A stretch of DNA of 63,991 bases, filler included, from Candidatus Hydrogenedentota bacterium (GCA_040752395.1; 14 parts of 14 records of this genome joined end to end with filler, not necessarily neighbours in it), one strand, 5' to 3'. Positions 1-62,190 are shown, counted from the first letter of the whole stretch. Translations and numbers: made by a program. The notes: a model not told the origin generated them from the letters alone.

Positions 1-168
1 GCCGGCTGGAGCCAAAAGCCAAAAGCCTGCTGAAAAGTCTTGAGTCTTGAGTCTCGAGTCCTGTTTTGACTCACGACTTGCGACTCACGACTCTTTTCAT
101 ATCATCTTTAGTTTTTCATCCTTTGTGCCTTCTCCTCCTGGCTTCTGTCTTCTGTCTCCTGTCTCCTG
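1..168 (+). repeat. Composite repeat: GGCTAC/AGCC module, GAGTC/GACTC hairpin module, GTCTCCT module
   Basis: Near-identical to 2481-2606, 33089-33249 and 61900-62045; inverted copies at 30591-30700 and 38004-38100. Confidence 0.95.
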
Positions 169-2441
169 ATACTTATCTCATAATTGCTAAAATATCTTAT
201 TTTCTTATTTATTATTAGTTTAGCTTCGAAATTAGTTTTATCTATTGGCTCGAATTTTAGAACGATCTTATTTTTATCTAATTTTTTTTCGCTTAATTCT
301 CCAAAGGCATAAATAAGTCTTACAGCTTTTGTGATTTTTAGATTAAACGGGATAACAAAGAGACTGCGTTCTTTAAATTCTATATCGCCTTTTTGTGGGA
401 TCCTAATATTTTTATATTCAATATATCCTTTTATTTTCATATCGTGGAAATTTCCTGCAAAGATAAAACTACCATCAGGGCCTTTTCTTATTGTGGCAGA
501 AAGAAGTTCAGGATGAACATTGATTTTCTTTTGCATCCCAATCTTTTTTGCAATAAATTTGAAATAATCACGAATGATGTTAAACTTATCATTAAGAGGG
601 AACCCCAGAACTAATATTTTACCCTTCCCGAATCGACGAATAAAACCGCATACAGATTTATCCATAGTTGTTGCAAGTATCTCATCTTTTTTATTAGGTT
701 CAAAGACAAGAACCTTAAAAGTATCCACGAAAATATCACCGATTGGAGTATAAATAAGTCGGGATTCTACAGTAGAGCTTTGTAAACCCAGTGTCTTAAT
801 TAAGAAATCACATTTTCTATTATATAGATCAACAACAGGTAAAAGCGGAAGAATAGATAGGATACCGCCATTTTCAACAAAATATAGAAGCTTTTTTTGT
901 GTTTTTAAATCCATAAAAGTATCTGAATAGACCCATAACGGCAGATTGCTATCTGAAATATCGTGTTTTTCTATATCTACAAACTCAAAAGAATAATTAT
1001 TTATTTCAAGTAGCCGCGCGATCCCATCAAAGAAGTATTGCTGACGCTTAAAATCAATCTCTTTTATAACCTTGCCATCCATATATTCGGTTTTATAATA
1101 GGGCGTATAAAAACCAAGACAACAGCTTATCTCTTTTTGAGTAAGTGTTATCTCTTCACCAATCGCTTTAATTAATTTCCCGAAATTTTTTAAAACTTCA
1201 AAATGGGGACGTTTTTCCAGATTCGAACTGATAGGTGCTTGCCATTCATGGTAAGAACCGAATTGACCGATATCTTCAGTATTTGTTCCACCGGCGAACA
1301 TATAACAGTTTAATCCGTTTAACCCCTGGGATGTACTCTGCTTTAAGTTTAGTTCAACGTCTTTGGGATAAAGTTTCGGTCTATCATACATTATACCTGT
1401 TTGCAGTTCTGCACATAGCACAGGGTTTTTACCGCATATCATTTTAATCACAGAGGAAGCCATAGAAATATCATGATAATTTTCATAATCGAGACGTCTC
1501 ATCTGATAAGCACCGCCAAAAACTACATCCTTAACTTTTTTCACAAACCGATCAAACATAGTTGTTGTGAGAGTTGCATAAATTCCTCTGCCGCGAACAT
1601 CGAAATCATAAAACTGCGGTATGTTTGATATAACAGGTACAGTGATGCCGCGTTTTGTAACAAAACTTTTTAACGTTTTAAAATATTCAGCATAATATTC
1701 TCTGTAAAACTCAGCCCTGTCCCAATGCTCTGGTAATATATTATCGCTGATTTTTACTGAAGGCTGCCTGATCTCTTTAAAATTTGTATAATTTGTTTTA
1801 TATAATTTATTAAGGTTCTCTATTGTCTTATATTTATTTTGCAGAAAATTCTGATACAAAGAAGTAACAAACGGGCTGAAATCAGGTGCTTTCGCAAGCC
1901 AGTTAACCATAGCAATTTCATTGCAAAGCTGGACTAAAATTATATTTCCATTGTATTGAATCTGATAAGGTGCTATCTCGGTTAATAATTTATCATACCA
2001 TTTTTCAGTGAGTTCTAAAAATTTTGGGTTTTTATAGGAAGGCGTTCCCTGGTGATGTATCGCTTCACCAGATTCCATAATAAGACAGGTCTCTTTATAT
2101 TTTTCAAGCAGCCATGCTGGTAAACCCTCGTTTTTCATCTCACCATTCGATACAGGGCCGATACGCGGAATGAAATACATTTCCTCGTCAAATAGAAGAT
2201 TTAACCATTTTTTAAGATTTCGTCTGGGATGAGTTTTTCCTGCAAAATCAAAGATGCCTTCATTAAGCTCGTGAAAGCGCCAGGGGATATATGAAGCAAT
2301 GGTATTAAGTCCTGCCTCTTTTGCTAAACGTATAACTTTTAGCCAGTTCTGTGGTTCTATTCTGAAATAATGAACTTCGCCTGAATATATAAACAAAGGT
2401 TTGCCGTTTATATAAAACGCCCTGTTTTTTAATTCAATCAT
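108..2441 (-). CDS. GH35-family glycoside hydrolase (beta-galactosidase / exo-beta-D-glucosaminidase-like)
   Basis: SGEVHYFRI, GLNTIASYIPW, LVQLCNEI and CAELQTG motifs; last ~19 aa are read from an intergenic repeat. Confidence 0.85.
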   Translation of the reverse strand: MIELKNRAFYINGKPLFIYSGEVHYFRIEPQNWLKVIRLAKEAGLNTIASYIPWRFHELNEGIFDFAGKTHPRRNLKKWLNLLFDEEMYFIPRIGPVSNGEMKNEGLPAWLLEKYKETCLIMESGEAIHHQGTPSYKNPKFLELTEKWYDKLLTEIAPYQIQYNGNIILVQLCNEIAMVNWLAKAPDFSPFVTSLYQNFLQNKYKTIENLNKLYKTNYTNFKEIRQPSVKISDNILPEHWDRAEFYREYYAEYFKTLKSFVTKRGITVPVISNIPQFYDFDVRGRGIYATLTTTMFDRFVKKVKDVVFGGAYQMRRLDYENYHDISMASSVIKMICGKNPVLCAELQTGIMYDRPKLYPKDVELNLKQSTSQGLNGLNCYMFAGGTNTEDIGQFGSYHEWQAPISSNLEKRPHFEVLKNFGKLIKAIGEEITLTQKEISCCLGFYTPYYKTEYMDGKVIKEIDFKRQQYFFDGIARLLEINNYSFEFVDIEKHDISDSNLPLWVYSDTFMDLKTQKKLLYFVENGGILSILPLLPVVDLYNRKCDFLIKTLGLQSSTVESRLIYTPIGDIFVDTFKVLVFEPNKKDEILATTMDKSVCGFIRRFGKGKILVLGFPLNDKFNIIRDYFKFIAKKIGMQKKINVHPELLSATIRKGPDGSFIFAGNFHDMKIKGYIEYKNIRIPQKGDIEFKERSLFVIPFNLKITKAVRLIYAFGELSEKKLDKNKIVLKFEPIDKTNFEAKLIINKKIRYFSNYEISIRRQETEDRSQEEKAQRMKN

Positions 2442-2443
2442 AT

Positions 2444-2606
2444 CTTCTCTGAAAAACGCTGTAACTCTAATAATTCGGGGTACAGGCTATGGACTACAGC
2501 CAGCTGGAGCCAGATGCACGGAGCCTGCTGAAAAGTCTTGAGTCTTGAGTCTCGAGTCCTGTTTTGACTCACGACTCTTTTCATATCATCTTTAGTTTTT
2601 CATCCT
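2444..2606 (-). repeat. Composite repeat ending in the SD-bearing terminal module, upstream of GH35
   Basis: Minus strand reads ...ATTATTAGAGTTACAGCGTTTTTCAGAGAAGAT-ATG; near-identical to 61861-62035. Confidence 0.95.
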
Positions 2607-7589: not shown

Positions 7590-7715
7590 GGTTTTAGTTT
7601 CTTTATCTTGCTTCTTGCCTCTTGCCTCTTTCGTTTTATCTTTCTTTTTCTTTCCTCAACCTCAACCTCAACCTTAACCTTTTCTTTCTTTCCGTTATCT
7701 TGCCGCTCGCTTCTT
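7590..7715. repeat. CTTGC(T/C)T heptad module plus CTCAAC hexamer tandem
   Basis: cttgcttcttgcctcttgcct, ctcaacctcaacctcaaccttaacct, ttccgttatcttgc; shared with 2707-2756 and 25479-25526. Confidence 0.85.
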
Positions 7716-8185: not shown

Positions 8186-8275
8186 GTAATCCATCAGTTA
8201 CCGCTGGCTTTCAGGCTCCAGGCTACGGGCTACAGCCGGAATACTGCACTAACCCACCTCTAACTGACCGATTGC
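8186..8275. repeat. Element bounded by terminal inverted repeats, containing a GGCT heptad module
   Basis: GTAATCCATCAGTTA ... TAACTGACCGATTGC (12/15 inverted match). Confidence 0.8.
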
Positions 8276-12575: not shown

Positions 12576-13496
12576 ATGAAAAAAACTGTTTTATATTTTT
12601 GGTTGTTTTTAATTTTGGGTATTTCCTGCGGAAAGAAAGAAGAGGTAATAAAATTTGTAGGATTCTATCGAAGTGAGTGCCCGGAAATACAAAAACTTAA
12701 AGTGAATTTTACTAATACGACTGATAATGATATATCTCCGCACTTTTTTATACAACAAGTACCTTATCAACCAGGATATTGGAGAATTATCAAAGGCTCG
12801 AAGATTGTTTCACCAGCTAAAACAGAGATATATGTTATAAAATCACCTTATGATGATTATGGTTTAATGCCGGAGAAAGAAGCTGTTATTTCGATTCGAG
12901 ATAAGAATTATCAGTATGCACAAAAGATACGGATACCCGAGATAGAATTACCCCCGATATTTAACCCCGATTTCAGCTATTATCGTTTTAATAATAGCAG
13001 GTTAATCAGAGTGCCTATGCACTGGAAGGTTGAAAAGATAAATATGAGAGATGATTCTTTTAATATTATCCGTGATAAGGTAAATAATATTTACTATCAG
13101 ATAATTTTTCCGGTGCAAAAAGAAAAATCAAAAGTCAGGATATCGCAAAATATAGACTATTTAAATAAACCATTAACGATACTTTTGAGATCGAATATTT
13201 CAGCGACAAAAAATAACACTATTATAATACGATTACGATTTGCTGATACAATAATAGATTATGTATTAAGAGATGATTTAGATTCCCCCAAAACAATTAA
13301 GCGGAATAAAAATCATATTGTTATATCTTTGAGATATTCCAGGGATAAACTTACAAGACTTGTCCTCAAGCCATTTGCGTATCTATCAATTAAAGATGCA
13401 TCCTCAAAAAAAATCTTTCTTGAATTGAATATTTTTGTAGAAAACAATAAAGAGAAATATTATTTTGTTCTTGATAGAATAAAATATGCGATCTAG
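12576..13496 (+). CDS. Hypothetical lipoprotein
   Basis: GIS-C lipobox after hydrophobic signal. Confidence 0.65.
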   Translation: MKKTVLYFWLFLILGISCGKKEEVIKFVGFYRSECPEIQKLKVNFTNTTDNDISPHFFIQQVPYQPGYWRIIKGSKIVSPAKTEIYVIKSPYDDYGLMPEKEAVISIRDKNYQYAQKIRIPEIELPPIFNPDFSYYRFNNSRLIRVPMHWKVEKINMRDDSFNIIRDKVNNIYYQIIFPVQKEKSKVRISQNIDYLNKPLTILLRSNISATKNNTIIIRLRFADTIIDYVLRDDLDSPKTIKRNKNHIVISLRYSRDKLTRLVLKPFAYLSIKDASSKKIFLELNIFVENNKEKYYFVLDRIKYAI

Positions 13497-13785
13497 AATA
13501 CGACGTCTCTTTTAAACCCTATTTTGTTTATGGGTTACAAAGTGACAAAGGTACAGAGGCACAAAGGGATATAAAAAGCCTCAAAAAACTTTGTGCCTTT
13601 GTGCCTGAAAAAAATGACTTTTAAAAGAAACCTCGTATTCCCTCAGAACTTGTGAAATAATCAACATTAATACCTGCTAACTTTTTTATTATCAGTCCCC
13701 ATTTTCTAAAAAAGTCTAATTTTTTCACAGGTTTTCAGTCTTCAGTGGGATTCCGTAATCTTGCTTCTTGCTTCTAAAGTAATAC
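13496..13785. repeat. Nested palindromic elements (8-mer GCACAAAG/CTTTGTGC hairpin, terminal motif, second inverted repeat)
   Basis: GAATACGACGTCTCTTTTAAA...TTTTAAAAGAAACCTCGTATTC; GTATTCCCTCAG at 13635; AACTTGTGAAA...TTTCACAGGTT. Confidence 0.75.
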
Positions 13786-24062: not shown

Positions 24063-24358
24063 TATTCCCCTCAGTTTCCGGTGTTCGATGTTCGGTTCAC
24101 CGATAACCTAAAACCCAAAACCTATAACCGAATATCTTGCTTCTTGCTCTTTGTCGCTTCGCTCCATTATAAATTTAGGCTTCGAGCCACTGGCTTCAGG
24201 CTCCAGTTGAAAAGTCGGGAGCCACGAGCCCAGAATCGTAAAATCAGTCAATAAGTCGTAAGTCAAGGACTGACGACTCAAGACTCCCCAGACTGATTTC
24301 ATTTTGCAATTTCCAATTTCCAATCTTCAATTCCGAATATCCTGTATCTTGCTTCTTG
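24063..24358. repeat. Mosaic of heptad modules ending in the terminal motif that provides the eda SD
   Basis: TATTCCCCTCAGT; TTCGG/AACC module matching 59624-59690 inverted; AGTC/GACT and TTTCCAA modules. Confidence 0.85.
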
Positions 24359-25683: not shown

Positions 25684-25697
25684 TAAAATGTTATAAT

Positions 25698-30786: not shown

Positions 30787-30788
30787 GG

Positions 30789-36432: not shown

Positions 36433-36516
36433 AGTGAATTTTATCACAATTTACACAACCAAAATTAGGAATCAGGGGTCAGGAGTCAGACTGCCTACTG
36501 CCTATCTCCTTATACC

Positions 36517-36909
36517 CTATCCCCTATTCCCTTTGTGCCTCTGTGCCTCTGTGCCTCTTTTCTTACGTCTTGCATTTTTACGTTCCAATATACTTTTGAT
36601 TTTATAGAAAAAGTCTTCAGGCTCAATCCTTTTTATAGGATGTCTATTATCTTCAGTATCGAGGTGTTCATGCCAGCCCTCAGGTGGATAATTGTTAATC
36701 CTGTAAATTTTACCGTCCGCTCTTTGCCAATGATAATAATATTTATCCAGGATTATATTGACAAAAACATCTACATAACTGCCATCTATAAGATGATACC
36801 TGAGTTTTGCGGTTGTAACTTTTTTTGATAGCGTCTCCTGTCTCTCTACTATCTCTGAATGATCTGCCACAGAATTCAATCGTGATAAAAAGTTATCTAA
36901 TTCCGTCAC
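36517..36909 (-). CDS. DUF6516/TumE-like protein
   Basis: KYYYHWQ...IYRINN...WHEH; C-terminal RGTEAQRHKG is repeat-derived. Confidence 0.6.
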   Translation of the reverse strand: MTELDNFLSRLNSVADHSEIVERQETLSKKVTTAKLRYHLIDGSYVDVFVNIILDKYYYHWQRADGKIYRINNYPPEGWHEHLDTEDNRHPIKRIEPEDFFYKIKSILERKNARRKKRGTEAQRHKGNRG

Positions 36910-38003: not shown

Positions 38004-38193
38004 AGTCAAAACAGGACTCGAGACTCAAGACTCAAGACTTTTCAGCAGGCTTTTGGCTTTTGGCTCCAGCCGGCTGTAGTCCGTAGCCTGTAGCCTGTAG
38101 CCCGTCCTGATACTTCTCACTTCTTCCGTTATCTTGCTTCTTGCCTCTTGCTTCTACTTGATATTATTATAGTTACAATGTTTTTCGAAGGAG
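38004..38193 (+). repeat. Composite repeat supplying the clpB SD
   Basis: ...TTGATATTATTATAGTTACAATGTTTTTCGAAGGAG-AACCAAA-ATG. Confidence 0.95.
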
Positions 38194-38200
38194 AACCAAA

Positions 38201-48962: not shown

Positions 48963-49067
48963 TAGTTAAGAAGCAAGAGGCAAGAGGCAAGATGATAATT
49001 TGAATCTTTGAATCTTTCAATCTTTGTGCCTCAAACTATGTGTTTTATTTAAAGATATAAAGTTTCT

Positions 49068-50583: not shown

Positions 50584-50584
50584 T

Positions 50585-53500
50585 ATGGTATTCGTTTTTT
50601 CTATGGTAAAGAGGTTTATATTAGCAACTCTACTTATATATTTTTTTATTTTATCCCAGGCTTCTTATGGTGATACATATATTTTTGTAAGAAAATGGGG
50701 TAGCTCAGGTACCGGGGATGGACAATTTGATAGACCGAGCGGCATCGGCATGGATAAATACGGCCATGTGTATATATCAGAGTACAGTAACTCTCATCGT
50801 TGTCAGAAATTTACAAAGAATGGTAATTTTATATTAAAATGGGGGAGTTTAGGTGCTGGTAACGGCCAGTTTAATTATGCCAGTGGTGTGGTCGTGGATT
50901 CAGCAGGCTATATTCATGTAGTAGATAGAGTTAATGAACGTGTTCAAAAATTTACGCAAGATGGCAGCTTTGTTACTATATGGGGTAGTGGAAATCTGGA
51001 TCTTCTGTTTGATCACTATGCAGGTATTGCAATAGATTCTTCTTCTAATATTTATGTTTGCAGGACAGATGGGAGTAGTATAAGTAGCGTGAGAAAATTT
51101 AATTCAAGTGGTGGTTATATCTTAGATATTGGCAGCAGGGGTACTGCATTTGGTAAATTTCAAGATCCTCATGGTGTAGCAGTTGATGATACAGGTTATG
51201 TTTATGTTTCAGACCGAAAAAGTGGTGGTAGTATCAGATTACAGAAATTTACAGTCGGAGGTTCCACGATTATGGCAATTGATACTGGTGGACTTAATGA
51301 TCCTACGGGTGTTGCGGTAGATAAATATGGTTATGTATATGTTTGTGATAAAGATAACCACCGCATTAAGAAATATGATTCTAATGGTAATATTATAACA
51401 GTTTGGGGTAGTAATGGTGCGGCTGATGGCCAGTTCTCTTCTCCTGAAGGCATCTTTGTGGATTCTTTTGGGTTTGTATATGTTTGCGATGGTGGGAATA
51501 GCAGGATACAGGTCTTTGCATTAACTGATGCTGATAGTATCCCCTGCTCAGCACCAGGCAGCGTTATAGTTTCCAACCCTGGTTATGGGGGACAATTAAA
51601 TTTATCCTGGTCCAACCCACCCCAACCAGATTTTTCCTATGTAATGATTTATCGCTCTACCGCTTCATTATCTCTCGGCTCACTTATTTATTCTAATGTA
51701 ACAGAAACGTCAAAAATAGATACAGGACTTACAAATGGTGAGACATATTATTATACTTTCTTTGCTGTTGATACCAATGGTAACTGGTCAATTGATACTA
51801 CGCAATATAGTGGGACCCCCTATGATACTATAACACCAACCGAAGTCACATTATTAACACCGGCTGACGGAACCCCAACCTCAACAGTTAGACCTGTGTT
51901 CACTTATACTAATTCGTTAGATTCGTCAAACATTGAGTACATTTTAGAGATAGATGATACATATAGTTTTAGTTCGATTAACTATACAGGTACATCATTG
52001 ACATTAAGTTGTAGTCCGAGCGTAGATATACTAAACGGCACATATTACTGGCGAGTAAGAGTAAAGGATATTTATAATAATTCAAATCAAGGTATAGATT
52101 CACGAATGATAGTAATAGATACCGCGGCTCCAAATGAGGTAAGTTTAATTTCGCCGGTCGATGGTACGTGTACGAATGTAGTAAAGCCAGTGTTTTATTA
52201 TACTGCATCAGGTGATACGAGCGGTATAAAGTGGTATATATTAGAGATAGATGACACGAGTACTTTCAGTTCAATAAACTACAGTGGTACGTCAGTGAGT
52301 ACGAGTTGCAGTCCGAGTGCGGATATGGTAAATGGTACGTATTATTGGCGAGTGCGGGTGCTGGATATTCTTGATCAATCGAATGCTGGTATAGATACGA
52401 ATGTAATAGTGATAGACACAGCTGGCCCGAATGAGGTGAGTTTAATAAGTCCGGCAGATGGTAGTAGTACGAATGTAGTAAGACCAGTGTTTTATTATAC
52501 TGCATCAGGTGATACATCGGGCATAAAATGGTATATATTAGAAATAGATGATACTTATTCTTTTACTTCGATAAACTATAGTGGGACATCTACCACTACA
52601 AGTTGTTCGCCAACTGCTGATATGGCAGACAATACATATTACTGGCGAGTGCGGGTGCTGGATATTCTTGATCAATCGAATGTTGGGATAGATACAAGGG
52701 TTATAAGGATAGTAGCTGAGACAGTACCGCCTACTGAGGTAAGTTTAATTTCACCGGTTGATGGAGCATGTACGAATGTAGTACAGCCGGTATTTTGGTA
52801 TAGTGCATCGAGTGATAGTTCAGGTATAAAGTGGTATATTTTAGAGATAGACGACACGAGTAGTTTCAGTTCAATAAACTACAGTGGTACGTCAGTGAGT
52901 ACGAGTTGCAGTCCGAGTGCGGAGATGGTAAATGGTACGTATTATTGGCGTGTGCGGGTGATAGACGTATGGGATATATCGAATACCGGGATAGATAGCA
53001 GGGTAATAGTGATAGACACAGCTGGCCCGAATGAGGTGAGTTTAATAAGTCCGGCAGATGGTAGTAGTACGAATGTAGTAAAGCCAGTGTTTTATTATAC
53101 TGCATCAGGTGATACGAGTGGCATAAAGTGGTATATCTTAGAGATAGATGACACGAGTAGTTTTGCTTCGATAAACTACAGTGGTACATCAGTGAGTACG
53201 AGTTGCAGTCCGAGTGCGGATATGGTAAATGGTACGTATTACTGGCGAGTGCGGGTGCTGGATATACTTGATCAATCGAATGCTGGTATAGATACGAGAG
53301 TAATAATAATAGATACTTATATCTCTGTTAGTTTAGTTTCACCAGAGGACACATATTATACGAATGACACCACGCCGAGGTTTGTATGGTCAGGTAGCAG
53401 TGTAGATACCTATACGTTAGAGGTAGATAATGATATAAGTTTCACATCAATTAATTATACGGTTACGACTGGTGATACAGAGGCGAGTGCTGATGTATTA

Positions 53501-56500
53501 GGAGAGGACACATATTACTGGCGTGTGATAGGTTTTGATAAAGGTGGGAACTGGGAGACGACAGTAGCGAGGGTGATAGTGATAGATACTGGGTTACCGG
53601 CAGAGGTTAGTCTTATAGCGCCTGAAAATAATACAGAGACAAACGAACAGAGGCCGAGGCTTGTATGGGGTAGTTCGAGTGATAGTCGTAGTGGTGTATG
53701 GTATTATCAGATAGAGCTTGATAATAGCAGTAATTTTTTATCGATAGAGTATAGTGATACGAGTGATTCTTGTGAGTGGGAGAGTGATGTAGATATAGCT
53801 GGTGATACATATTACTGGCGGGTGAGGGTATATGATGTAGCTGGTAATAGTAATAGTGGGATAGATAGCAGGGTAATAAAGATAGTTGCGGACACGTTAG
53901 CGCCTGATGAAGTAAGTTTAATAAGTCCGGCAGATGGCAGTAGTACGAATGTAGTACAGCCGGTATTTTGGTATAGTGCATCGAGTGATAGTTCAGGTAT
54001 AAAGTGGTATATTTTAGAGATAGATGACACGAGTAGTTTTGCTTCGATAAACTACAGTGGTACGTCAGTGAGTACGAGTTGCAGTCCGAGTGCGGAGATG
54101 GTAAATGGTACGTATTATTGGCGTGTGCGGGTGATAGACGTATGGGATATATCGAATACCGGGATAGATAGCAGGGTAATAGTGATAGACACAGCTGGCC
54201 CGAATGAGGTGAGTTTAATAAGTCCGGCAGATGGTAGTAGTACGAATGTAGTAAAGCCAGTGTTTTATTATACTGCATCAGGTGATACGAGTGGCATAAA
54301 GTGGTATATCTTAGAGATAGATGACACGAGTAGTTTTGCTTCGATAAACTACAGTGGTACATCAGTGAGTACGAGTTGCAGTCCGAGTGCGGATATGGTA
54401 AATGGTACGTATTACTGGCGAGTGCGGGTGCTGGATATACTTGATCAATCGAATGCTGGTATAGATACGAGAGTAATAATAATAGATACTTATATCTCTG
54501 TTAGTTTAGTTTCACCAGAGGACACATATTATACGAATGACACCACGCCGAGGTTTGTATGGTCAGGTAGCAGTGTAGATACCTATACGTTAGAGGTAGA
54601 TAATGATATAAGTTTCACATCAATTAATTATACGGTTACGACTGGTGATACAGAGGCGAGTGCTGATGTATTAGGAGAGGACACATATTACTGGCGTGTG
54701 ATAGGTTTTGATAAAGGTGGGAACTGGGAGACGACAGTAGCGAGGGTGATAGTGATAGATACTGGGTTACCGGCAGAGGTTAGTCTTATAGCGCCTGAAA
54801 ATAATACAGAGACAAACGAACAGAGGCCGAGGCTTGTATGGGGTAGTTCGAGTGATAGTCGTAGTGGTGTATGGTATTATCAGATAGAGCTTGATAATAG
54901 CAGTAATTTTTTATCGATAGAGTATAGTGATACGAGTGATTCTTGTGAGTGGGAGAGTGATGTAGATATAGCTGGTGATACATATTACTGGCGGGTGAGG
55001 GTATATGATGTAGCTGGTAATAGTAATAGTGGGATAGATAGCAGGGTAATAAAGATAGTTGCGGACACGTTAGCGCCTGATGAAGTAAGTTTAATAAGTC
55101 CGGCAGATGGCAGTAGTACGAATGTAGTACAGCCGGTATTTTGGTATAGTGCATCGAGTGATAGTTCAGGTATAAAGTGGTATATTTTAGAGATAGATGA
55201 CACGAGTAGTTTTGCTTCAATAAACTACAGTGGTACATCAGTGAGTACGAGTTGCAGTCCGAGTGCGGAGATGGTAAATGGTACGTATTATTGGCGTGTG
55301 CGGGTGTTAGATATCTGGGACCAGTCCAATCTCGGGTTGGATTCGAATGTATTAATAATAGATACAGTGCCACCTGTTGTTTATCTGAATTCTATTGTGA
55401 TAAACAATGATGCATTGGTTACTAATGCTGAAACAGTGACTTTAAGTTTGCTATATGATAACAGTTCTATAGAGATGCAGATTTCTGATACTGAGACGTT
55501 TGCAGGAGCGAGCTTTGAGCCGGTTAGTTTGACTGATACTTATGTCTTGACCTCAATTGAGGGAACAAAGGCGCTGTGGGTAAGGTTTAAAGATGCTGCA
55601 GGCAATATCTCAAATTCGGATTCTGATACAATTGTGCTTGATAAAACTCCACCCGCTGGTTCGGTTATATTAGACAATGGTGCAGCGATTACAACGAGCC
55701 AGGTGGTAATAGCATCTATAACAGTAACAGAGACATACCAGATGATAGTTTCAACAGACGGTGTCTTTGATAATGAAGAGTGGGAATCAAAATCAGATAC
55801 TAAAGTTATTAATTATGGTGATACAGACGGAGTGAAATGGGTTTATGTAAGGTTCAGGGATTTAGCAGGGAATGCGAGTGACACGTGTTCGGATAGTATA
55901 ACTCTTGCCGTGCCGCCATTACCCGTTGTTAATCTTTCAGGTACGTTACTTGATGGGGCAAAGGTTAGACTTGATTGGTTAAAATCAGCGTCAAATGATG
56001 TTGTAAAATATTATATCTATTCTGATAGCACACAAGGAATAATAAATTGGAGTATACCTATTGATACAGTATCTGCACCAACAGTAACCTGGACAAGTGA
56101 TACGCTGTTAGCTGATACGTATTATCTATTAGGGGTACGAGCTGTAGATAATAATGGATATACTGATGAAGAATATAATGCAGTAAGAGTAATGCCGAGA
56201 ACATCAATAGATACTAATAAACCACAAACAGCTATAAAAAAGGCAAAAGTATATAGTGGTATATATGCGAATATTATAGCAGAGGTTGTTGTAAGTTCTG
56301 TTAATAATATCAGCAAAGTATTATTTCAGTACAGCGTGGATACAGGTGCTACGTGGGTGGATATGCTGCAATATAATGCTACTAATTATCCTAATCCTGT
56401 TTTTAATTGTTTTGATCTGGCAAAATACAATACTTTATGGGATATAAGTGGTTTGGCTCAGGGAGAATATCTTATCCGTGCAGTGGCTTATAATTTAAAT

Positions 56501-57385
56501 AATGTTCCTGATACATACGCACCTGGTATCTGGGTAGAGATAGGTGGCGACAATAGTTCGAGTAATCCACGGGATTGGCCTGATGAGATGGGTGATACTA
56601 CAACAGAGGGTATAAGGTCAAGGGTTAAATGTTATACTACTATAAGTAATACCTTAGAGTTAGCAGTTCCGAATCGTCAGAGCTCAATTGACCAGTTAAA
56701 CATAGCAAATGGACTTCTGAATAATGAGATAGACCAGCTCGAGATAATATTTGTAGATTCGTCGTATTATGATACCTGGATTAGAGCAGCTCAGTTTGTG
56801 TATGCTAATGAAATAAGAAAAATAGAGTTACGCAGTGGCCAGACACAATTTACTGCGGGTAATGTAGAATTTAATATTTCTTATCAGGATCAAGATCTGG
56901 ATGGTATTGTAGATGGAACGACTTTAAGAGAGGATGATTTAAAAATTTATCGGCTAAGTAATACTGATAGCAAATGGTATGAGATATCAAGTCAGGTAGA
57001 TAAAACTAATAAACGAGTGAATGGGTTAACAAGTCAGTTTAGTGTGTTTGCAGTTGGTGCTATACCTGTAGCGAGTAATCTTGCTAATGTTATAGTATAT
57101 CCGAATCCATTCAGGCCGAATGATGGGAACTGGCAGACAGGGGTTGATTATAATGGTTCTGCGGGCAGCGGGATATATATAACAAACCTTATGGCAAGTA
57201 CTGAGGTTGAGGTTTATAATGTATCGGGCCAGAAAGTCTACGATTTTGTTACCTCTGCGAATACCGGAACAGTGCAGTGGGATGCAAAGGATAAGAACGG
57301 TCGGTATCTGCCAAGCGGTGTGTATATAATGTTATTAAAGAAAGGCGGAGATAGAAAGATAGTTAAGTTTGCGATAATTAGATGA
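50585..57385 (+). CDS. 2266-aa secreted protein: NHL propeller, FN3-like repeats, T9SS/FlgD-like C-terminal domain
   Basis: GQFxxPxGIAVD repeats; GTYYWRVR repeats; YPNPF...WDAKD...PSGVY. Confidence 0.85.
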   Translation: MVFVFSMVKRFILATLLIYFFILSQASYGDTYIFVRKWGSSGTGDGQFDRPSGIGMDKYGHVYISEYSNSHRCQKFTKNGNFILKWGSLGAGNGQFNYASGVVVDSAGYIHVVDRVNERVQKFTQDGSFVTIWGSGNLDLLFDHYAGIAIDSSSNIYVCRTDGSSISSVRKFNSSGGYILDIGSRGTAFGKFQDPHGVAVDDTGYVYVSDRKSGGSIRLQKFTVGGSTIMAIDTGGLNDPTGVAVDKYGYVYVCDKDNHRIKKYDSNGNIITVWGSNGAADGQFSSPEGIFVDSFGFVYVCDGGNSRIQVFALTDADSIPCSAPGSVIVSNPGYGGQLNLSWSNPPQPDFSYVMIYRSTASLSLGSLIYSNVTETSKIDTGLTNGETYYYTFFAVDTNGNWSIDTTQYSGTPYDTITPTEVTLLTPADGTPTSTVRPVFTYTNSLDSSNIEYILEIDDTYSFSSINYTGTSLTLSCSPSVDILNGTYYWRVRVKDIYNNSNQGIDSRMIVIDTAAPNEVSLISPVDGTCTNVVKPVFYYTASGDTSGIKWYILEIDDTSTFSSINYSGTSVSTSCSPSADMVNGTYYWRVRVLDILDQSNAGIDTNVIVIDTAGPNEVSLISPADGSSTNVVRPVFYYTASGDTSGIKWYILEIDDTYSFTSINYSGTSTTTSCSPTADMADNTYYWRVRVLDILDQSNVGIDTRVIRIVAETVPPTEVSLISPVDGACTNVVQPVFWYSASSDSSGIKWYILEIDDTSSFSSINYSGTSVSTSCSPSAEMVNGTYYWRVRVIDVWDISNTGIDSRVIVIDTAGPNEVSLISPADGSSTNVVKPVFYYTASGDTSGIKWYILEIDDTSSFASINYSGTSVSTSCSPSADMVNGTYYWRVRVLDILDQSNAGIDTRVIIIDTYISVSLVSPEDTYYTNDTTPRFVWSGSSVDTYTLEVDNDISFTSINYTVTTGDTEASADVLGEDTYYWRVIGFDKGGNWETTVARVIVIDTGLPAEVSLIAPENNTETNEQRPRLVWGSSSDSRSGVWYYQIELDNSSNFLSIEYSDTSDSCEWESDVDIAGDTYYWRVRVYDVAGNSNSGIDSRVIKIVADTLAPDEVSLISPADGSSTNVVQPVFWYSASSDSSGIKWYILEIDDTSSFASINYSGTSVSTSCSPSAEMVNGTYYWRVRVIDVWDISNTGIDSRVIVIDTAGPNEVSLISPADGSSTNVVKPVFYYTASGDTSGIKWYILEIDDTSSFASINYSGTSVSTSCSPSADMVNGTYYWRVRVLDILDQSNAGIDTRVIIIDTYISVSLVSPEDTYYTNDTTPRFVWSGSSVDTYTLEVDNDISFTSINYTVTTGDTEASADVLGEDTYYWRVIGFDKGGNWETTVARVIVIDTGLPAEVSLIAPENNTETNEQRPRLVWGSSSDSRSGVWYYQIELDNSSNFLSIEYSDTSDSCEWESDVDIAGDTYYWRVRVYDVAGNSNSGIDSRVIKIVADTLAPDEVSLISPADGSSTNVVQPVFWYSASSDSSGIKWYILEIDDTSSFASINYSGTSVSTSCSPSAEMVNGTYYWRVRVLDIWDQSNLGLDSNVLIIDTVPPVVYLNSIVINNDALVTNAETVTLSLLYDNSSIEMQISDTETFAGASFEPVSLTDTYVLTSIEGTKALWVRFKDAAGNISNSDSDTIVLDKTPPAGSVILDNGAAITTSQVVIASITVTETYQMIVSTDGVFDNEEWESKSDTKVINYGDTDGVKWVYVRFRDLAGNASDTCSDSITLAVPPLPVVNLSGTLLDGAKVRLDWLKSASNDVVKYYIYSDSTQGIINWSIPIDTVSAPTVTWTSDTLLADTYYLLGVRAVDNNGYTDEEYNAVRVMPRTSIDTNKPQTAIKKAKVYSGIYANIIAEVVVSSVNNISKVLFQYSVDTGATWVDMLQYNATNYPNPVFNCFDLAKYNTLWDISGLAQGEYLIRAVAYNLNNVPDTYAPGIWVEIGGDNSSSNPRDWPDEMGDTTTEGIRSRVKCYTTISNTLELAVPNRQSSIDQLNIANGLLNNEIDQLEIIFVDSSYYDTWIRAAQFVYANEIRKIELRSGQTQFTAGNVEFNISYQDQDLDGIVDGTTLREDDLKIYRLSNTDSKWYEISSQVDKTNKRVNGLTSQFSVFAVGAIPVASNLANVIVYPNPFRPNDGNWQTGVDYNGSAGSGIYITNLMASTEVEVYNVSGQKVYDFVTSANTGTVQWDAKDKNGRYLPSGVYIMLLKKGGDRKIVKFAIIR
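52771..55306 (+). repeat. Near-perfect 1173-bp intragenic tandem duplication (about 2.2 copies)
   Basis: Anchors at 53311/54484 and 52771/53944 are both 1173 apart. Confidence 0.9.
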
Positions 57386-57654: not shown

Positions 57655-57854
57655 ATTTATTGGATGAATTGAGACAACAGATGGTATTATCTTTACCAAT
57701 GAAATTTTTATGCAGAGATGATTGCCTGGGATTATGTCCCGTATGCGGTGAAAATAGAAATATCAGACATTGCGGACATAAGCTAAAATCATATAATACA
57801 CTCGCAACCCAACTCGAGGATATCAAAGATAAGATTGAAAGATTGAAAGATTAA
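57655..57854 (+). CDS. yceD: YceD/DUF177 protein, 3' part
   Basis: LSLPMKFLCRDDCLGLCPVCGENRN; upstream of rpmF. Confidence 0.85.
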
Positions 57855-58198
57855 AAGATACGGCGAGAAAGTGTATATTTTCGCTTTCTTTACTTTTAAC
57901 TTTTGACTTTTTACTTTTAACTTGTCATAGGAGTTAGAAGTTAGGAGTTCGTAATAATAGATCCGAGCTCCGAGCTTTGAACTCCGAACTTTTTCGAAGG
58001 AGTACTCATGAGCGCGTTTGCGCTCTACACAAAGGATGAAAAACTAAAGATGATATGTTGGCTTCAGGCTCCGGGCTTCGGGCTCCAGTCGGCTGTAGTC
58101 CGTAGCCTGTAGCCTGTCCTGATACCTCTCACTTCTTCCGTTATCTTGCTTCTTGCTTCTACTTGATATCATTAGAGTTACAATATTTTTCAGAGGAG
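57836..58198 (+). repeat. Mosaic repeat between yceD and rpmF
   Basis: GAAAGATT, TTTTAAC, GGAGTT/GAACTCC, GGCT and CTTGCTT modules plus terminal SD module. Confidence 0.9.
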
Positions 58199-58209
58199 GT
58201 ATCCACTCG

Positions 58210-58437: not shown

Positions 58438-58485
58438 TAGTTGATATGAAAAAAGATAGGAGACAGGGGACAGAAGATAAAAATG

Positions 58486-58628
58486 TTGAAAGATTGAAAG
58501 ATTAAAAGATACGGCAAGGAAGTGTATATTTTCGCTTTCTTTACTTTTAACTTGTCATAGGAGTTAGAGGTTAGGAGTTCGTAATAATAAATCCGAGCTC
58601 CGAGCTCCGAACTTTTTCAGAGGAGTAC
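58486..58628 (+). repeat. Direct repeat of 57836-58005 supplying the plsX SD
   Basis: Ends TTTTTCAGAGGAGTAC-T-ATG. Confidence 0.9.
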
Positions 58629-58629
58629 T

Positions 58630-59634
58630 ATGGTCAGGATAGTTGTAGATGCGATGGGAAGTGATAAAGCACCCAAACCTGAGATATTTGGTGCGTTACT
58701 CGCGTTAGATATTGATGAAAGTTTAGAGCTCATTCTCGTGGGTGAGGAAAACATAATCAAAGAAGAACTAAGCAAAATCTCAAAGGATATCAAACGGATT
58801 GAAATAATAGGTGCAGATAGTGCTGTAACTATGGATGATATACCAACCTCTGTTATAAGGAATAAAAAGGACTCCTCAATAGTTGTCGCAACAAAATTAG
58901 TCGCCGAAGGCAGAGCAGACGCAATGGTAACAGCTGGTAATACAGGTGCCTCAATGGTGGCCTGTAAATTGAATTTCGGTTTAATTGAAGGGATAGAACG
59001 CCCGGGGATCGCTGCACTTTTGCCAACTAAAAAAGATAAACCCGTGATACTTATAGATATTGGTGCGAATGTAGATTGTAAACCTTTGCATCTCGCACAT
59101 TTCGCTATTATGGGCGCAAGTTATTCACAGTGGGTTATAGGTATAAGAGACCCTAAGGTCGGATTATTGAATATTGGCGAAGAGGATACCAAAGGTAATG
59201 ACCAGACAAAGAATGCATTTAAATTATTGAAAAATGCGCCTGTTAATTTTATAGGGAATGTTGAGGGCAGGGATATTATTAAAGGGGATGTTGATGTTAT
59301 TGTATGTGACGGTTTTATCGGCAATATTATTCTAAAATTTGGTGAATCCGTTGGCTTTATGGTAATGGAGTTTTTAAAACGCGAGCTCGCAAATAAACTC
59401 GTTTACAAAATTGGAGCCTATCTTGCAAAACCAGCTTTTCTTAAATTTAAAAAGAAAGTAGATTATTCTGAGTATGGCGGTGCACCACTGCTCGGATTGA
59501 AAAATGTTAGCATTATCTGTCATGGCAGTTCTAACTCAAATGCTATCTGTAACGCGATACTCTTTGCCTCTAATTATGTTAAAAAAAATATAAATGAAAA
59601 AATTGGATCGATGGTCTCAAATTTTCGGTTATAG
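58630..59634 (+). CDS. plsX: Phosphate acyltransferase
   Basis: VDAMGSD, GNTGA, DIGAN, LNIGEE, CHGSS. Confidence 0.95.
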   Translation: MVRIVVDAMGSDKAPKPEIFGALLALDIDESLELILVGEENIIKEELSKISKDIKRIEIIGADSAVTMDDIPTSVIRNKKDSSIVVATKLVAEGRADAMVTAGNTGASMVACKLNFGLIEGIERPGIAALLPTKKDKPVILIDIGANVDCKPLHLAHFAIMGASYSQWVIGIRDPKVGLLNIGEEDTKGNDQTKNAFKLLKNAPVNFIGNVEGRDIIKGDVDVIVCDGFIGNIILKFGESVGFMVMEFLKRELANKLVYKIGAYLAKPAFLKFKKKVDYSEYGGAPLLGLKNVSIICHGSSNSNAICNAILFASNYVKKNINEKIGSMVSNFRL

Positions 59635-59830
59635 GTTTTTGGTTTTGGGTTATCGGTGAACCGAACACCGAACATCAATAACTGAATATCTTGCCTCTAT
59701 ATAGTACCTTACAAATGAAATCTTGACATTTTTAGCAAAAATATTTACCACGGAGACACTGAATTATAGAGACACCGAAAAATATATAAAAAATTCCGTG
59801 TCTCTGTTTTTTCGATTATTCTGTGGTAAA
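59624..59830. repeat. TTCGG/AACC module and CCACGGAGACAC-type palindrome
   Basis: Inverted match to 24075-24135; TTTACCACGGA...TCTGTGGTAAA. Confidence 0.8.
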
Positions 59831-59904: not shown

Positions 59905-60004
59905 NNNNNNNNNNNNNNNNNNNNNNNNNNNNNNNNNNNNNNNNNNNNTTAATTAATTAANNNNNNNNNNNNNNNNNNNNNNNNNNNNNNNNNNNNNNNN
60001 NNNN

Positions 60005-61851
60005 TTTTTAGCCTGCTCGAACCACTGGTTAAATATCTCATTTTGTTTTTTTTCAAAGAGGTCATTATAGAGTTCGGCCCGGAATCTCTCAAATTCCTCT
60101 TCGTCAAAAGGTTTACGTTTTATAAGTTGAAATATATGGTAACCGTTCTGAGCGTTAATCGTGTCACTTATTTCATCAGTAGTTAGGTATAAAATTTTTT
60201 GTTGGATTGAGGGGTCGAGGAAGTACAAAGTTCTACCACGTGATATATATGAATAACCTATCTCCTTTTGGAGGATCTCTATTGTTTCTGTATCATAGTC
60301 AGAATAATTTCTTTCTGAGATTAAGCCTGTTCTAAAGTATGGCAAGTCACCGCCAATGCTTGCTGTTTTTCCGTGAGAGAATTCTTTAGCGAGCTCTCCA
60401 AAATCCTGGCTTTCTTCTTTTAGCAGTTTATAAAGCCTATTAATCTCATTTTTTGCAAATTCGACCTCGGTATCGTTTACTAAAATGGTTCTTATTCTTT
60501 CCTCAACATCAGAAAATGGGAGTAGTCTTTCCTCTTTTTTATCTTTAAGTTTTATCAGATGAAACCCGAGTGTTGATCTAACCGGGTCACTGATCTCGCC
60601 GACCTTTAATTTAAATGCCTCATCTAATACCGGGTTTTCTGAAAGCTTTGGTCTTATTAAAATATGTCTTGCTCTTCTTCGGTCGCCATCGATTGCTTCG
60701 AGTTTAATGATATGGAATCCAAACCTTGTTTCAACTATATTTGATAGTTCACCGATGCTTTTAAGTTTATACAACGCTTTTTCAAAAGATTCATCCATTT
60801 CCCCAGGACTAATCCATGAGAGGTCACCCCCTCGCACACGTGATGGACAATCTGAATATTTTTTAGCAAGCATCTCAAAATTAGCACCTTCTTTTAATAG
60901 CTTAAGTAATTCTTCTGATTTTTTATAAGCAGTATCAATATCGTCATCCGTTAGAGGTATGTTGAATGGGTTATCGTTTTTTGTAAAAAATTGATATATT
61001 AAACCGCTATCCTCTTTTGCTGTGCTTCTATCCTGCGAGTATTTATAACAAGCCTCATCGTAAGTAATTAATCCGGCCTTTATCTCAGCAAGAATATTTA
61101 AACAGGAGTCCTGGATCTCATCAATCTGAGCATCGGTGGCTTCTTGAGGCAAGCCCAATAATAGATGTTGGATCTGGACGCTTTCGAGTTCTGTATATTT
61201 ATCAAGATTTTCTTCGTATTCTTTTTTAGCAAGATTAATGGGGACGTAATAAGAAGGCTTTATTAAGATATGCCTTGTCTTTATCATGCCTGATATCTGC
61301 AGATAATATGTTTTAAGTTCCTTTTCTGTTATCACGATACCGCTTGTAAGATACGATATAATTTTATCTCTTAAGATACTACGTTTTGTTGATTCTTCAA
61401 GGACACGTAATTGTCTTGAATAACTGCCATCACGTACAACCCTGTTATATGTTGCAGCATCAAAAACGCCATCTTTGTAAAAAGTGGGGTGTCTGCGTAT
61501 CTCATTTACTATTTCTTTATCAGAGACAGTGATGTTTAAGTCCGAAGCCGCGTCAATTAATAATATTTCTTTAGTAAAATCATCAATAGTCTTTTTATAT
61601 GCCTCTTTTTTTAGTTCGTCATCTGTAGCGTAACGTCTATTTTTTTTCAATTCTTCCTGGTTGTTACCGAGAAGCCGTTGAAAATTTTCAATTGGTATCT
61701 CTTCACCGTTTATCTTAAGAGCATAATTTATTCTACCGGACATCCCGGTAATATTCATCCCCCAATCGAAAAATATCAAAGCAACAAATGTAAAAACCGT
61801 TATAAGAAGAATAATCTTCATCTTTTCACGCATCCATTGAAAACTCATCAT
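60005..61851 (-). CDS. SurA/PpiD-like parvulin peptidyl-prolyl isomerase (partial)
   Basis: N-terminal TM; RHILIK, AKKYSDCPS..RGGDL, TRFGFHIIK. Confidence 0.9.
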
Positions 61852-61860
61852 AATTAAATA

Positions 61861-62190
61861 CTCCTCTGAAAAACGCTGTAACTCTAATAATTCGGGGTAC
61901 AGGCTACGGGCTACGGACTACAGCCGGCTGGAGTTAAAAGCCCGGAGCCTGCTGAAAAGTCTTGAGTCTTGAGTCTTGAGTCTCGAGTCCTGTTTTGACT
62001 CACGACTCTTTTTATATCATCTTTAGTTTTTCATACTTTGTGTAGAGCGCAAAAACCCAAGAACGCAATAACCCAAGAACCCAATAGTGTAGAGCGCAAC
62101 CCGCGCTCATGAGTACTCCTTCGAAAAAGTTCGGAGTTCGGAGTTCGGAGCTATTATTACGAACTCCTAACTTCTAACTCCTAACTCCTA
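61861..62190 (-). repeat. Mosaic repeat supplying the PPIase SD
   Basis: Similar to 57930-58198 inverted, with extra and missing modules. Confidence 0.95.

Follow-up and report, generated by a model that had tools for sequence, protein, structure and literature searches.

Dense intergenic heptanucleotide repeats with many unrelated units, some forming hairpins within mosaic cassettes, in a Candidatus Hydrogenedentota bacterium

The DNA analyzed here (the window) is a 63,991-nt stretch from a Candidatus Hydrogenedentota bacterium (GCA_040752395.1), in which 14 contigs are joined by N44-TTAATTAATTAA-N44 linkers. Its genes include clpB, the neighbors yceD, rpmF and plsX, and, by domain scans, those for a type IX secretion protein of the PorV/PorQ family and for a CHU_C domain; relatives of the window's PlsX above 55% identity were not found. 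The spaces between genes are densely occupied by heptanucleotide tandem repeats of many unrelated units, and these repeats are real. Period 7 accounts for 59 of the 111 rows that TRF reports at a score of at least 30, versus on average 3.03 period-7 arrays, and never more than 6, in 30 local, dinucleotide-preserving shuffles of 200-nt blocks, which bears out the excess expected in an initial annotation of this DNA; period 8 is raised too, with 13 rows versus 3.7 in the shuffles. Exact-match runs reaching at least 5 bases beyond the period length, sought for periods 4-12, number 16 at period 7, two at period 8, one at period 6 and none at the rest. The autocorrelation that had been proposed for intergenic DNA likewise peaks, within the window, at lags 7, 14 and 21 (self-identity 0.355, 0.323 and 0.309, with roughly 0.27-0.31 at other lags), and coding DNA of the window has no period-7 peak (0.272 at lag 7). 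Many arrays lie at the ends of contigs of ~2.2-2.6 kb, which makes this a repeat-enriched sample.

The 59 period-7 arrays, 52 of them intergenic, fall into 28 unit classes, so the claim of more than 12 unrelated 7-nt modules stands, although many arrays are copies of two composite repeats. That the period is constant while the sequence varies holds for these classes and for the diverse units seen in other phyla. TRF recovers 14 of the 15 heptad types first named by reading the sequence, but not the CTTCTCA type, whose stretch at ~28118-28150 appears by eye as degenerate heptads; it also finds the three 8-mers (at 57831 and 58486, at 13589 and at 62050) and the 6-mer (at 7654). The commonest family is AGCAAGA, with its longest array, of 8.1 units, at 27892..27948 and further ones at 2734, 11863, 13759, 25318, 25506, 30732, 31853, 38132, 48968, 50494 and 58144. 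Read from the gene and array listing, this family runs 7 against 5 relative to gene orientation, with 1 ambiguous. By eye, arrays of this family also bracket the toxin-antitoxin cassettes of the window in alternating orientation.

Many arrays are components of two dispersed mosaic intergenic cassettes, composites A and B. At least eight copies of composite A, partial ones included, are dispersed over 64 kb, 7 of 8 co-oriented with the adjacent annotated gene by our own reading, and complete copies end in an RBS-like GGAG(G) a few bases 5' of an ATG. The first copy (1..175, minus strand), downstream of the glycosidase gene 108..2441(-), contains AAAAGCC units (10-27), a GAGTC/GACTC hairpin (42-93) and CTCCTGT units (135-168); this hairpin had served as the original example, and its GAGTC/GACTC helices are present, but its limits are 42-93 and not 43-92. 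Immediately 5' of the start of the same gene lies a second copy (2445..2606, minus) with a GGCT/AGCC hairpin (2474-2528), a GAGTC hairpin (2528-2585) and an RBS-like end, lacking the AGCAAGA module. At 28049..28160 (plus) is a partial copy, in which a GGCT/AGCC hairpin (28052-28116) gives way to degenerate TTCYYAC heptads. The copy at 30591..30800 (plus), whose GAGTC hairpin is truncated by a contig end, carries a GGCT/AGCC hairpin (30644-30712), TCTTGCT units (30732-30748) and an RBS-like end, and is the one copy of the eight that has no long ORF downstream on its strand. Another, at 33089..33300 (minus), downstream of gene 33409..35211(-), has GGCT/AGCC (33089-33142) and GAGTC (33145-33222) hairpins and CTGTCTC units (33262-33281). 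Immediately 5' of clpB (38201, plus), the copy at 38004..38200 (plus) comprises hairpins at 38004-38043 and 38044-38108 and TCTTGCT/TCTTGCC units (38132-38155) that yield a -35-like TTGCCT 18 nt before TATTAT. A further copy, in the yceD-rpmF spacer (57990..58209, plus), has a GGCT/AGCC hairpin (58056-58122) and TCTTGCT units (58144-58160) and is without the GAGTC hairpin module, and the last (61852..62050, minus; hairpins 61888-61950 and 61952-62010) lies immediately 5' of the SurA-like gene 60005..61851(-). Between copies there are indels of 7, 14 and 7 nt, that is, of whole units, and entire modules are present in some and absent from others.

Composite B occurs in at least three copies in the 64 kb, two of them in the order yceD-[B+A]-rpmF-[B]-plsX. 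In the yceD-rpmF spacer (57826..58007, plus), GAAAGATT 8-mers are followed by a terminator-like hairpin (57865-57890), ACTTTTA heptads, a GGAGTTA/GAACTCC hairpin (57925-57992) and an RBS-like end. The rpmF-plsX spacer repeats this module order (58480..58629, plus; hairpin 58558-58616), with its GGAG terminus just 5' of the plsX ATG at 58630, and a partial copy (62100..62192, minus) retains an AGTTCGG/AACTCCT hairpin (62125-62192). A sense-strand terminator scan flagged the composite-B hairpin alone, leaving the two composite-A hairpins unflagged.

Other spacers hold further combinations. TCTTGCY heptads and then CCTCAA hexamers (7606..7680) separate two minus-strand genes, as does a short GGCT/AGCC-type array with hairpin (8205..8245, minus); 40 nt past the stop of gene 12576..13496(+) is an 8-mer hairpin (13535..13610, plus) in which GGCACAAA-type units pair with CTTTGTGC units. 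Another spacer of two minus-strand genes (24080..24332, minus) is filled with AACCYAA heptads, short GGCT/AGCC-type and AGTC/GACT-type hairpins and TTTCCAA heptads. A run of four arrays (36467..36558) combines AGGAGTC-type, ACTGCCT, CCTATCC-type and 8-mer CCTCTGTG units; AAGAGGC heptads and then TTTGAATC 8-mers (48968..49026, plus) lie between a gene for 2341 aa and the PorV-like gene; a GGTTTTN/GAACACC heptad hairpin (59618..59680, plus) is just 3' of plsX; and a AACCCAAG-type array (62044..62086) has period 8 with a 16-nt super-period.

Modules arranged as inverted arms, as had been described, do form hairpins in several families, but of the 75 period 6-8 arrays only 19 lie no more than 40 nt from a complementary one, and hairpin function therefore cannot account for most arrays. 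The arrangement of helices and loops is strand-dependent. In gene-sense RNA, the GGCT/AGCC hairpin consists of 6-bp helices, G.U pairs included, with a single pyrimidine-pyrimidine mismatch every 7 nt, and not of 4-bp helices with 3x3 loops. The sense strand gives the more stable fold in 19 of 23 hairpins of the window, and for six of nine families the margin is clear, at about 3 kcal/mol or more, as in -36.2 vs -27.6, -26.6 vs -18.5, -30.0 vs -21.0 and -27.3 vs -10.1 kcal/mol. Most inverted arrays tested have sense-strand z-scores of -2 to -6.7 versus shuffles, more negative on sense than antisense in 11 of 15. G.U pairs make up 25 of 181 pairs in sense folds and 12 of 166 in antisense folds, and under DNA parameters the energies are roughly halved and the GGCT/AGCC hairpin loses its strand asymmetry; within the window, G.U pairing thus favors reading at the RNA level. 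The asymmetry is partly compositional, since sense strands are somewhat G+T-rich and fold better even when shuffled. In the folding and covariation checks proposed at the outset, several inverted arrays beat shuffles, but there is no compensatory change in 19 pairs across 8 copies of the GGCT/AGCC hairpin, whose spacers vary between AAA and CGA/CGG without compensation. Arm lengths also vary independently (4 vs 4, 4 vs 2, 5 vs 4 and 5 vs 2 units). Rfam has no match in the window, and in 20 external loci it matched tRNAs only and no repeat family.

Heptad hairpins with a GAGTC core occur in 55 further assemblies, from about 10 phyla according to their titles. Their named neighbors are for the most part housekeeping genes, and the hairpins occupy spacers of ribosomal-protein genes as well as of tRNA genes. 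Examples inside transcription units are S10-hairpin-L3, S7-hairpin-EF-G and rbfA-hairpin-nrnA and the spacers of tRNA clusters at two loci, one of them with 9 tRNAs. The 75 loci from other phyla also contain 137 period-7 arrays without a GAGTC/GACTC core, of very diverse units. Among 37 external hairpins between same-strand genes, on crude gene calls, there is no sense bias (15 vs 17, Wilcoxon p=0.6). Complementary arrays in the 75 loci form 78 pairs within 30 nt versus 13 at 60-400 nt, the close pairs being mostly the 75 seed hairpins chosen for that arrangement, and a second spacing peak, of 49 pairs, lies at 400-1500 nt.

The arrays fit a known heptanucleotide class, represented by cyanobacterial STRR, Mrazek's long SSRs and the TAACTGA repeats; what sets them apart is an unusual density, diversity and formation of hairpins. 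In heterocystous cyanobacteria (Calothrix, Nostoc/Anabaena), STRR, or short tandemly repeated repetitive heptanucleotides, come in several unrelated units within one genome and lie largely between genes, in transcribed regions. Tandem 7-nt units, multiple unrelated units per genome, intergenic bias and, presumably, siting in transcribed DNA are common to both, but the units of the window are distinct and not G-rich, and many of its arrays form polar mosaic cassettes and hairpins from two different units. The REP/BIME elements of enterobacteria are mosaic intergenic imperfect palindromes inside operons that are transcribed, stabilize upstream mRNA and act as weak terminators; REP units are ~35 nt long and linked to RAYT transposases, and BIME features include a GTAG signature. 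Our cassettes are also mosaic intergenic elements within operons and may be functional analogues, but are 7-nt tandem arrays, with no RAYT seen in the scanned ORFs. Calothrix heptanucleotide repeats are on record in PMC4692102. Mrazek 2007, as summarized in the Introduction of PMC4679880, found heptamers to be the most abundant long SSR in many bacteria and, as summarized there and in PMC4692102, placed long SSRs in intergenic DNA and proposed polymerase slippage as their origin; by these summaries, long SSRs (5-11 nt units) resemble our arrays in heptamer dominance and intergenic siting, but the survey concerned direct repeats. TAACTGA repeats are known from Beggiatoaceae, cyanobacteria and some Bacteroidetes (MacGregor 2015, PMC4679880), where they too form intergenic arrays shortly 5' of start codons, mix with other heptamers in Microcystis, Gramella and Elizabethkingia, show 7-nt-step indels between strains and coincide with contig breaks. 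They are essentially direct (one indirect repeat in 170 sets, PMC4679880), unlike the several hairpin families here, and in the window TAACTGA is not tandemly repeated and its single copies are unenriched (18 vs 12.0 +/- 3.5). The G-quadruplex-type heptamers GGGAATC and GGGGAYT of Xanthomonas and Nostoc (Rehm 2015, PMC4692102) are likewise intergenic, sometimes in inverted pairs with stem-loop potential, and variable in length between related strains, but the window has many more unit types, and its units lack G-runs, so quadruplexes are not expected.

We suggest, with confidence and doubt in about equal measure, that these are heptad SSRs of the STRR or long-SSR kind, born by slippage and transcribed as intercistronic RNA hairpins, an origin, transcription and function that we infer from a window in which we observe a period-7 excess, mosaic structure, whole-unit indels, intergenic and intra-operon siting and a stronger sense RNA fold. 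Slipped-strand mispairing would have created the arrays and changed their length in whole 7-nt steps, and in this genome the arrays would then have been incorporated as modules into dispersed mosaic cassettes that are oriented like the genes and probably transcribed together with them. An array that precedes one with a complementary 4-6 nt core could form, in the transcript, a long hairpin with a mismatch at every seventh position, and such imperfect arms may prevent a long perfect palindrome in the DNA itself. By analogy with REP/BIME, the hairpins might serve as intercistronic RNA structure, for 3'-end protection, as processing sites or for partial termination.

It is possible, if rather unlikely, that the arrays are instead a neutral by-product, slippage-prone junk tolerated between genes in a lineage whose replication or repair favors 7-nt slips, with hairpins and sense bias as side effects of composition and of the copying of whole intergenic segments. 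The missing compensatory changes, independently varying arms, mostly unpaired arrays, AGCAAGA family without polarity, better folding of shuffled sense strands and lack of sense bias in other phyla all agree with this, as does a unit diversity as extreme as mutation alone would give; but in several phyla arrays persist among the closely spaced genes of strongly expressed operons and tRNA clusters, z-scores fall to -6.7, composite A has a fixed polarity, and complementary pairs (mostly selected seeds) crowd within 30 nt. We consider it improbable that the cassettes are miniature mobile elements, MITE- or REP/BIME-like, copied by a transposase encoded elsewhere. Mobility would suit the dispersal of composites A and B, the lack of the entire GAGTC hairpin module in the yceD-rpmF copy, and a module mosaic that recalls BIMEs, with GTAG recurring in CTGTAGC units, but it explains neither the 7-nt period nor the many unrelated units; the module-less site has other sequence instead of an evident target-site duplication, and no transposase or RAYT is present among the 43 ORFs scanned. 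Very unlikely, in our view, is a DNA-level element, with rows of duplex sites for a nucleoid protein or methyltransferase, promoter tuning or phase variation in 7-bp steps. Three heptads do make two helical turns, GAGTC/GACTC is the palindromic GANTC, rows of which make up each arm of the GAGTC hairpin, TCTTGCY units supply -35-like hexamers such as the one 5' of clpB, and deletion of heptamer repeats in Nostoc alters promoter-reporter activity according to a preprint (10.1101/2022.06.06.494920). Most other units, however, are non-palindromic, the neighbors are housekeeping genes and not contingency loci, promoter-like sites in the rpmF region number 7 vs 7.1 in shuffles, and a G.U-dependent strand asymmetry is meaningless for duplex DNA.

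The initial annotation, which as a whole is partly supported, had the arrays as empty cassette arms around a small protein (TIGR02436/Avd-like or GxxExxY) that recognizes a bulged ssDNA or RNA hairpin, and this we now hold to be highly improbable. TIGR02436, Avd and GxxExxY are absent from the window ORFs, 43 of which were scanned against Pfam and 20 against NCBIfam, and no dedicated binding protein was identified among them. Of 230 small ORFs adjoining external GAGTC hairpins at the 75 loci, two are TIGR02436 and none GxxExxY, and the other array-bracketed genes are ordinary (pth, a TM2-like protein, tRNAs and ribosomal proteins). In 23S rRNA intervening sequences, a TIGR02436 ORF for a four-helix bundle is enclosed by complementary arms in the transcript; the window's arrays lie outside rRNA, and their arms flank ordinary genes or nothing. 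The second spacing peak and the bracketed toxin-antitoxin cassettes would suit enclosed genes, and the suspected co-occurrence does exist, although it cannot serve as a general account of the arrays: TIGR02436 genes lie between heptad arrays at a Flavobacteriales and an Acidobacteria locus (E = 1.7e-28 and 9.1e-24), one of them added by hand after having been seen. In the Flavobacteriales case, the same GGAGTCG-array-plus-GACTC-arm module stands on either side of the gene.

Tandem repetition in steps of seven nucleotides occurs throughout the window far beyond chance. TRF reports 59 period-7 arrays, against a mean of 3.0 and a maximum of 6 in 30 shuffles preserving local dinucleotide content, and the self-identity of intergenic DNA peaks at lags 7, 14 and 21 (0.355, 0.323 and 0.309, with other lags at about 0.27-0.31), so the excess over shuffled controls anticipated by the initial annotation is clearly present. 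The autocorrelation of coding DNA contains the codon period only. Exact-match runs number 16 at period 7 and 0-2 at each other period of 4-12, and among arrays period 8 is also raised (13 vs 3.7 in shuffles). Fifty-two of the 59 period-7 arrays are intergenic, and 2 of the remaining 7 touch called ORFs at their extreme ends. Nearly all the units named on first inspection were recovered (all three 8-mers, the 6-mer and 14 of the 15 named heptads), as was the hairpin with inverted arms offered as an example, which spans 42-93. At 108-170, heptad arrays extend into the called end of a glycosidase ORF (its last ~20 codons), and at 25318-25348 an array extends into the TTG-start N-terminus of a called epimerase ORF; the true ends of both genes may differ from the mechanical ORF calls.

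The arrays comprise 28 canonical unit classes within 64 kb, which bears out the diversity of modules first described as unrelated, but many of them are not independent, being parts of two dispersed mosaic composites. Composite A has eight copies. In gene direction, an A-run precedes a heptad hairpin with GAGTC/GACTC arms, and a T-run separates this from a second heptad hairpin, of GGCT/AGCC; TCTTGCY heptads and a conserved A+T-rich segment follow, and the composite closes with GGAG(G) a few nucleotides ahead of an ATG. Composite B, with three copies, consists of GAAAGATT 8-mers, a terminator-like hairpin, ACTTTTA heptads and a GGAGTTA/GAACTCC hairpin, with GGAG before the ATG. Copies of both composites sit inside yceD-rpmF-plsX, and the modules of the composites are present or absent as whole units in a fixed order. 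Paralogous copies of composite A differ by indels of 7, 14 and 7 nt, and such whole-unit indels are a signature of slippage; the arms of individual hairpins hold 4+4, 4+2, 5+4 or 5+2 units. From one copy of composite A a hairpin module is missing, and the junction there shows no visible target-site duplication of the kind that goes with the terminal inverted repeats of a MITE. Seven of the eight composite A copies point in the same direction as the adjacent annotated gene, and the eighth, at 30591, faces minus-strand genes. A complementary array lies within 40 nt for only 19 of the 75 arrays of period 6-8, and arrays of AGCAAGA, the most frequent family, run in either orientation. Another dispersed repeat (~130 nt), which shows no 7-nt period, is found at 32790-32988 and 35212-35340, near two contig ends.

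Most hairpins fold better than their shuffles on the sense strand, that is, the RNA strand of the flanking genes, with z-scores of -2 to -6.7. Of 23 hairpins, 19 are more stable as the sense strand, and six of nine hairpin families have a clear sense advantage (~3 kcal/mol or more). The GGCT/AGCC hairpin illustrates the difference: as sense RNA it is predicted to form 6-bp helices with G.U pairs and one pyrimidine-pyrimidine mismatch at every seventh position, whereas the complementary strand forms 4-bp helices with larger loops, the fuller copies reaching -30 to -36 kcal/mol on the sense strand vs -21 to -28 on the other. The form of helix and loop, which the initial annotation took to be conserved, depends on the strand. 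G.U pairs make up 25 of 181 pairs in sense folds vs 12 of 166 in antisense folds, and with DNA parameters the energies halve and the strand asymmetry of GGCT/AGCC vanishes. The hairpin of composite B reads as a candidate intrinsic terminator (a G+C-rich stem, then a U-run, in the sense direction) in both complete copies; the GAGTC hairpin has just four T after its stem, and neither composite A hairpin was flagged in a sense-strand terminator scan. Rfam gave no match in the window and only tRNAs in 20 external loci.

To look beyond this genome, we scanned 185,579 species genomes for a pattern in which a short loop separates three GAGTC heptads from two GACTC heptads, GAGTC being the only core searched. 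This pattern occurs at no fewer than 75 loci in at least 55 assemblies (by accession prefix), and the record titles of the matches listed name Acidobacteriota, Chloroflexota, Planctomycetota, Bacteroidota, Gemmatimonadota, cyanobacteria, Bacillota, Pseudomonadota, Latescibacterota and Uhrbacteria; none of these listed loci has a G+C below 0.40. Their flanks (354 kb for the matches listed) hold 291 period-7 arrays, followed by periods 14 (63 arrays), 9 (49) and 8 (45). The GAGTC core is absent from 137 of the 291, whose units vary widely, so heptad-rich genomes generally carry many unrelated heptads. Among the matches listed the hairpin often occupies the whole spacer between two genes, as in S10-L3, S7-EF-G and rbfA-nrnA, pairs whose conserved gene order suggests co-transcription; another external GAGTC hairpin lies downstream of a groEL gene, and spacers of tRNA clusters are also filled with heptad arrays. 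In a Pyrinomonadaceae MAG record (L057:1600-3320), many spacers among nine tRNA genes contain heptad arrays, several as complementary pairs, and an IscB/Cas9-like HNH fragment adjoins the cluster. Crude longest-ORF calls for the matches listed place 37 hairpins between tandem, 10 between convergent and 6 between divergent genes, with 4 unclassified and 18 'inside ORF', the last probably spurious frames in G+C-rich DNA; on such crude calls the listed external hairpins have no sense-strand bias (15 vs 17). In the 75 matches listed, the two-base spacers separating the GAGTC cores can form Watson-Crick pairs at 190 of 376 positions, every spacer pairing in 15 loci and none in 16, so the spacers follow no strict rule of pairing or of bulging. 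In the open-access literature, GAGTC-type 12-mers turned up in eukaryotic and primer contexts only.

If the arrays were empty arms of cassettes, as the initial annotation put forward with four-helix-bundle (TIGR02436 or Avd-like) or GxxExxY small proteins as candidates, one might look for these genes beside them. The window holds no TIGR02436, Avd or GxxExxY gene. The scan near the external hairpins covered 230 small ORFs: a rule selected 229 from 253 candidates, one was added by hand, and the 24 window ORFs among the 253 were handled separately. For the matches listed, only 2 of the 230 are TIGR02436 and none is GxxExxY, but both TIGR02436 genes do lie between heptad arrays. One of them, in a Flavobacteriales MAG record (L007:1780-2560), stands between two copies of a long GGAGTCG array with a GACTC arm, and looks as if a heptad hairpin had received it by insertion or been duplicated together with it. 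Distances between complementary arrays in the listed external loci have a second peak at 400-1500 nt, and the other genes so enclosed are ordinary ones. When one four-helix-bundle protein was compared by phmmer with every local ORF, it matched only itself, and the open-access literature gave no link between TIGR02436 and heptamer repeats. The association of TIGR02436 with arrays exists, but it does not explain the arrays.

The window arrays belong to a known class of bacterial heptanucleotide repeats. Bacterial heptamers have been known since the cyanobacterial STRRs and later proved to be the commonest class of long SSRs, for which polymerase slippage has been proposed as the origin (PMC4679880, PMC4692102); further members are the repeats of TAACTGA and, in Xanthomonas and Nostoc, G-rich heptamers (PMC4679880, PMC4692102, 10.1101/2022.06.06.494920). 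The window arrays resemble these in being tandem 7-nt repeats beyond chance, mainly intergenic, built of several unrelated units and changing copy number by whole units. Their units differ from the classical STRR units. The host of STRRs in the strict sense is a heterocyst-forming cyanobacterium; for the window host, PorV/PorQ and CHU_C point to an FCB-like lineage, and Atlas look-ups gave broad leads only, first to bacteria in general and then to Fibrobacterota, Latescibacterota and other FCB-type phyla. TAACTGA, the heptamer of Beggiatoaceae, is not enriched in the window (18 occurrences vs 12.0 +/- 3.5, a count reached by 7 of 100 shuffles). Like REP/BIME elements, the composites are mosaics of imperfect palindromic units in intergenic positions, but a REP unit is ~35 nt and these units are 7-nt arrays; no RAYT or Y1 transposase is found among the 43 window ORFs scanned. 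CRISPR is rejected because the units abut without spacers, and an assembly artefact because arrays are also found within contigs, and other assemblies carry them in closed chromosomes. The window stands out for how densely the arrays lie, how many unit types they include, their polar mosaic arrangement and the hairpins built of two different units.

We favor a model in which the arrays would arise by slippage and be transcribed with the genes, and the hairpins may act as an intercistronic RNA structure comparable to REP/BIME, with the periodic mismatches perhaps keeping the DNA from forming a long palindrome. The main rival is that the arrays are neutral slippage debris. Compensatory changes, which the initial annotation had proposed as a check, were found at 0 of 19 pairs, in copies too similar for a strong test; four one-sided changes keep pairing. 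Part of the sense bias is compositional, as shuffled sense strands also fold better. Set beside these are the shared polarity of composite A and the sense advantage of most hairpin families. A bolder and in our judgment improbable reading is that heptad hairpins punctuate operons as transcribed elements of a widespread class that has no name yet. They would take the form of a 7-nt unit array followed by an array whose core is complementary (of GANTC type in at least 55 assemblies and about 10 phyla by title), and would lie in the intercistronic spacers of ribosomal-protein operons and in those separating tRNA genes. Conserved RNA machinery would read or process them, small selfish genes (four-helix-bundle genes, toxin-antitoxin pairs and the like) would land at them, and the 7-nt register would reflect a shared molecular ruler and not chance. 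The heptamer literature still describes function as speculative and gives no established cause for the 7-nt register (PMC4679880, PMC4692102, 10.1101/2022.06.06.494920). The window is an unusually rich case, with dozens of unit types, a polar mosaic and pairing that favors the sense RNA, and GAGTC-core hairpins in ribosomal-protein operons and tRNA clusters across phyla offer a concrete handle on whether such repeats are RNA elements.

The 14 contigs, joined by linkers of N44-TTAATTAATTAA-N44, have a G+C of ~35%; two are ~17 kb and the others 1.7-2.6 kb, and many of these end within repeats; the repeats account for the fragmentation of this assembly into ~2.3-kb contigs. The gene content is ordinary, including a glycosidase, genes of biotin synthesis, clpB, yceD-rpmF-plsX and a SurA-like gene. 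SSRs of phase-variable contingency loci sit at promoters or in early coding regions of surface or virulence genes and switch between unit numbers; the neighbors of the arrays here are housekeeping genes. The closest relative of PlsX (58630-59634) among 5.8 billion proteins is only 55% identical, so the host apparently belongs to a lineage without a close sequenced relative. The contig at 35574-37903 (2,330 bp) carries the same 127 nt at both ends (100% identity, spacing 2,203 nt), a pattern typical of a circular molecule or an assembler-closed tandem unit; it encodes a DUF4258 gene and two small unnamed ORFs, and two short ORFs there have weak matches to rSAM-modified RiPP/bacteriocin-leader models. 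Several toxin-antitoxin pairs are encoded in the window. At 25479-27948 and 30591-32988 they form same-strand cassettes (PIN with an upstream partner, HEPN with a partner, DhiT/DhiA-like and BrnA-like). On visual inspection, shared promoter-like segments (TTGACA, 17 nt, TATAAT near 31790-31820, minus strand) lie between them, and AGCAAGA arrays that alternate in orientation enclose them; on that visual basis, an integron attC-like or cassette-insertion reading of these stretches was considered. A PorV/PorQ-family type IX secretion gene is adjoined by two proteins of ~2,300 aa. At 52109-54486, within the 2,266-aa gene 50585..57385, lies a 297-bp tandem repeat of eight copies with 68% matches, which probably encodes repeated Ig-like protein domains, given that the domains of this gene are NHL, Big_13/Ig-like and CHU_C (type IX secretion).
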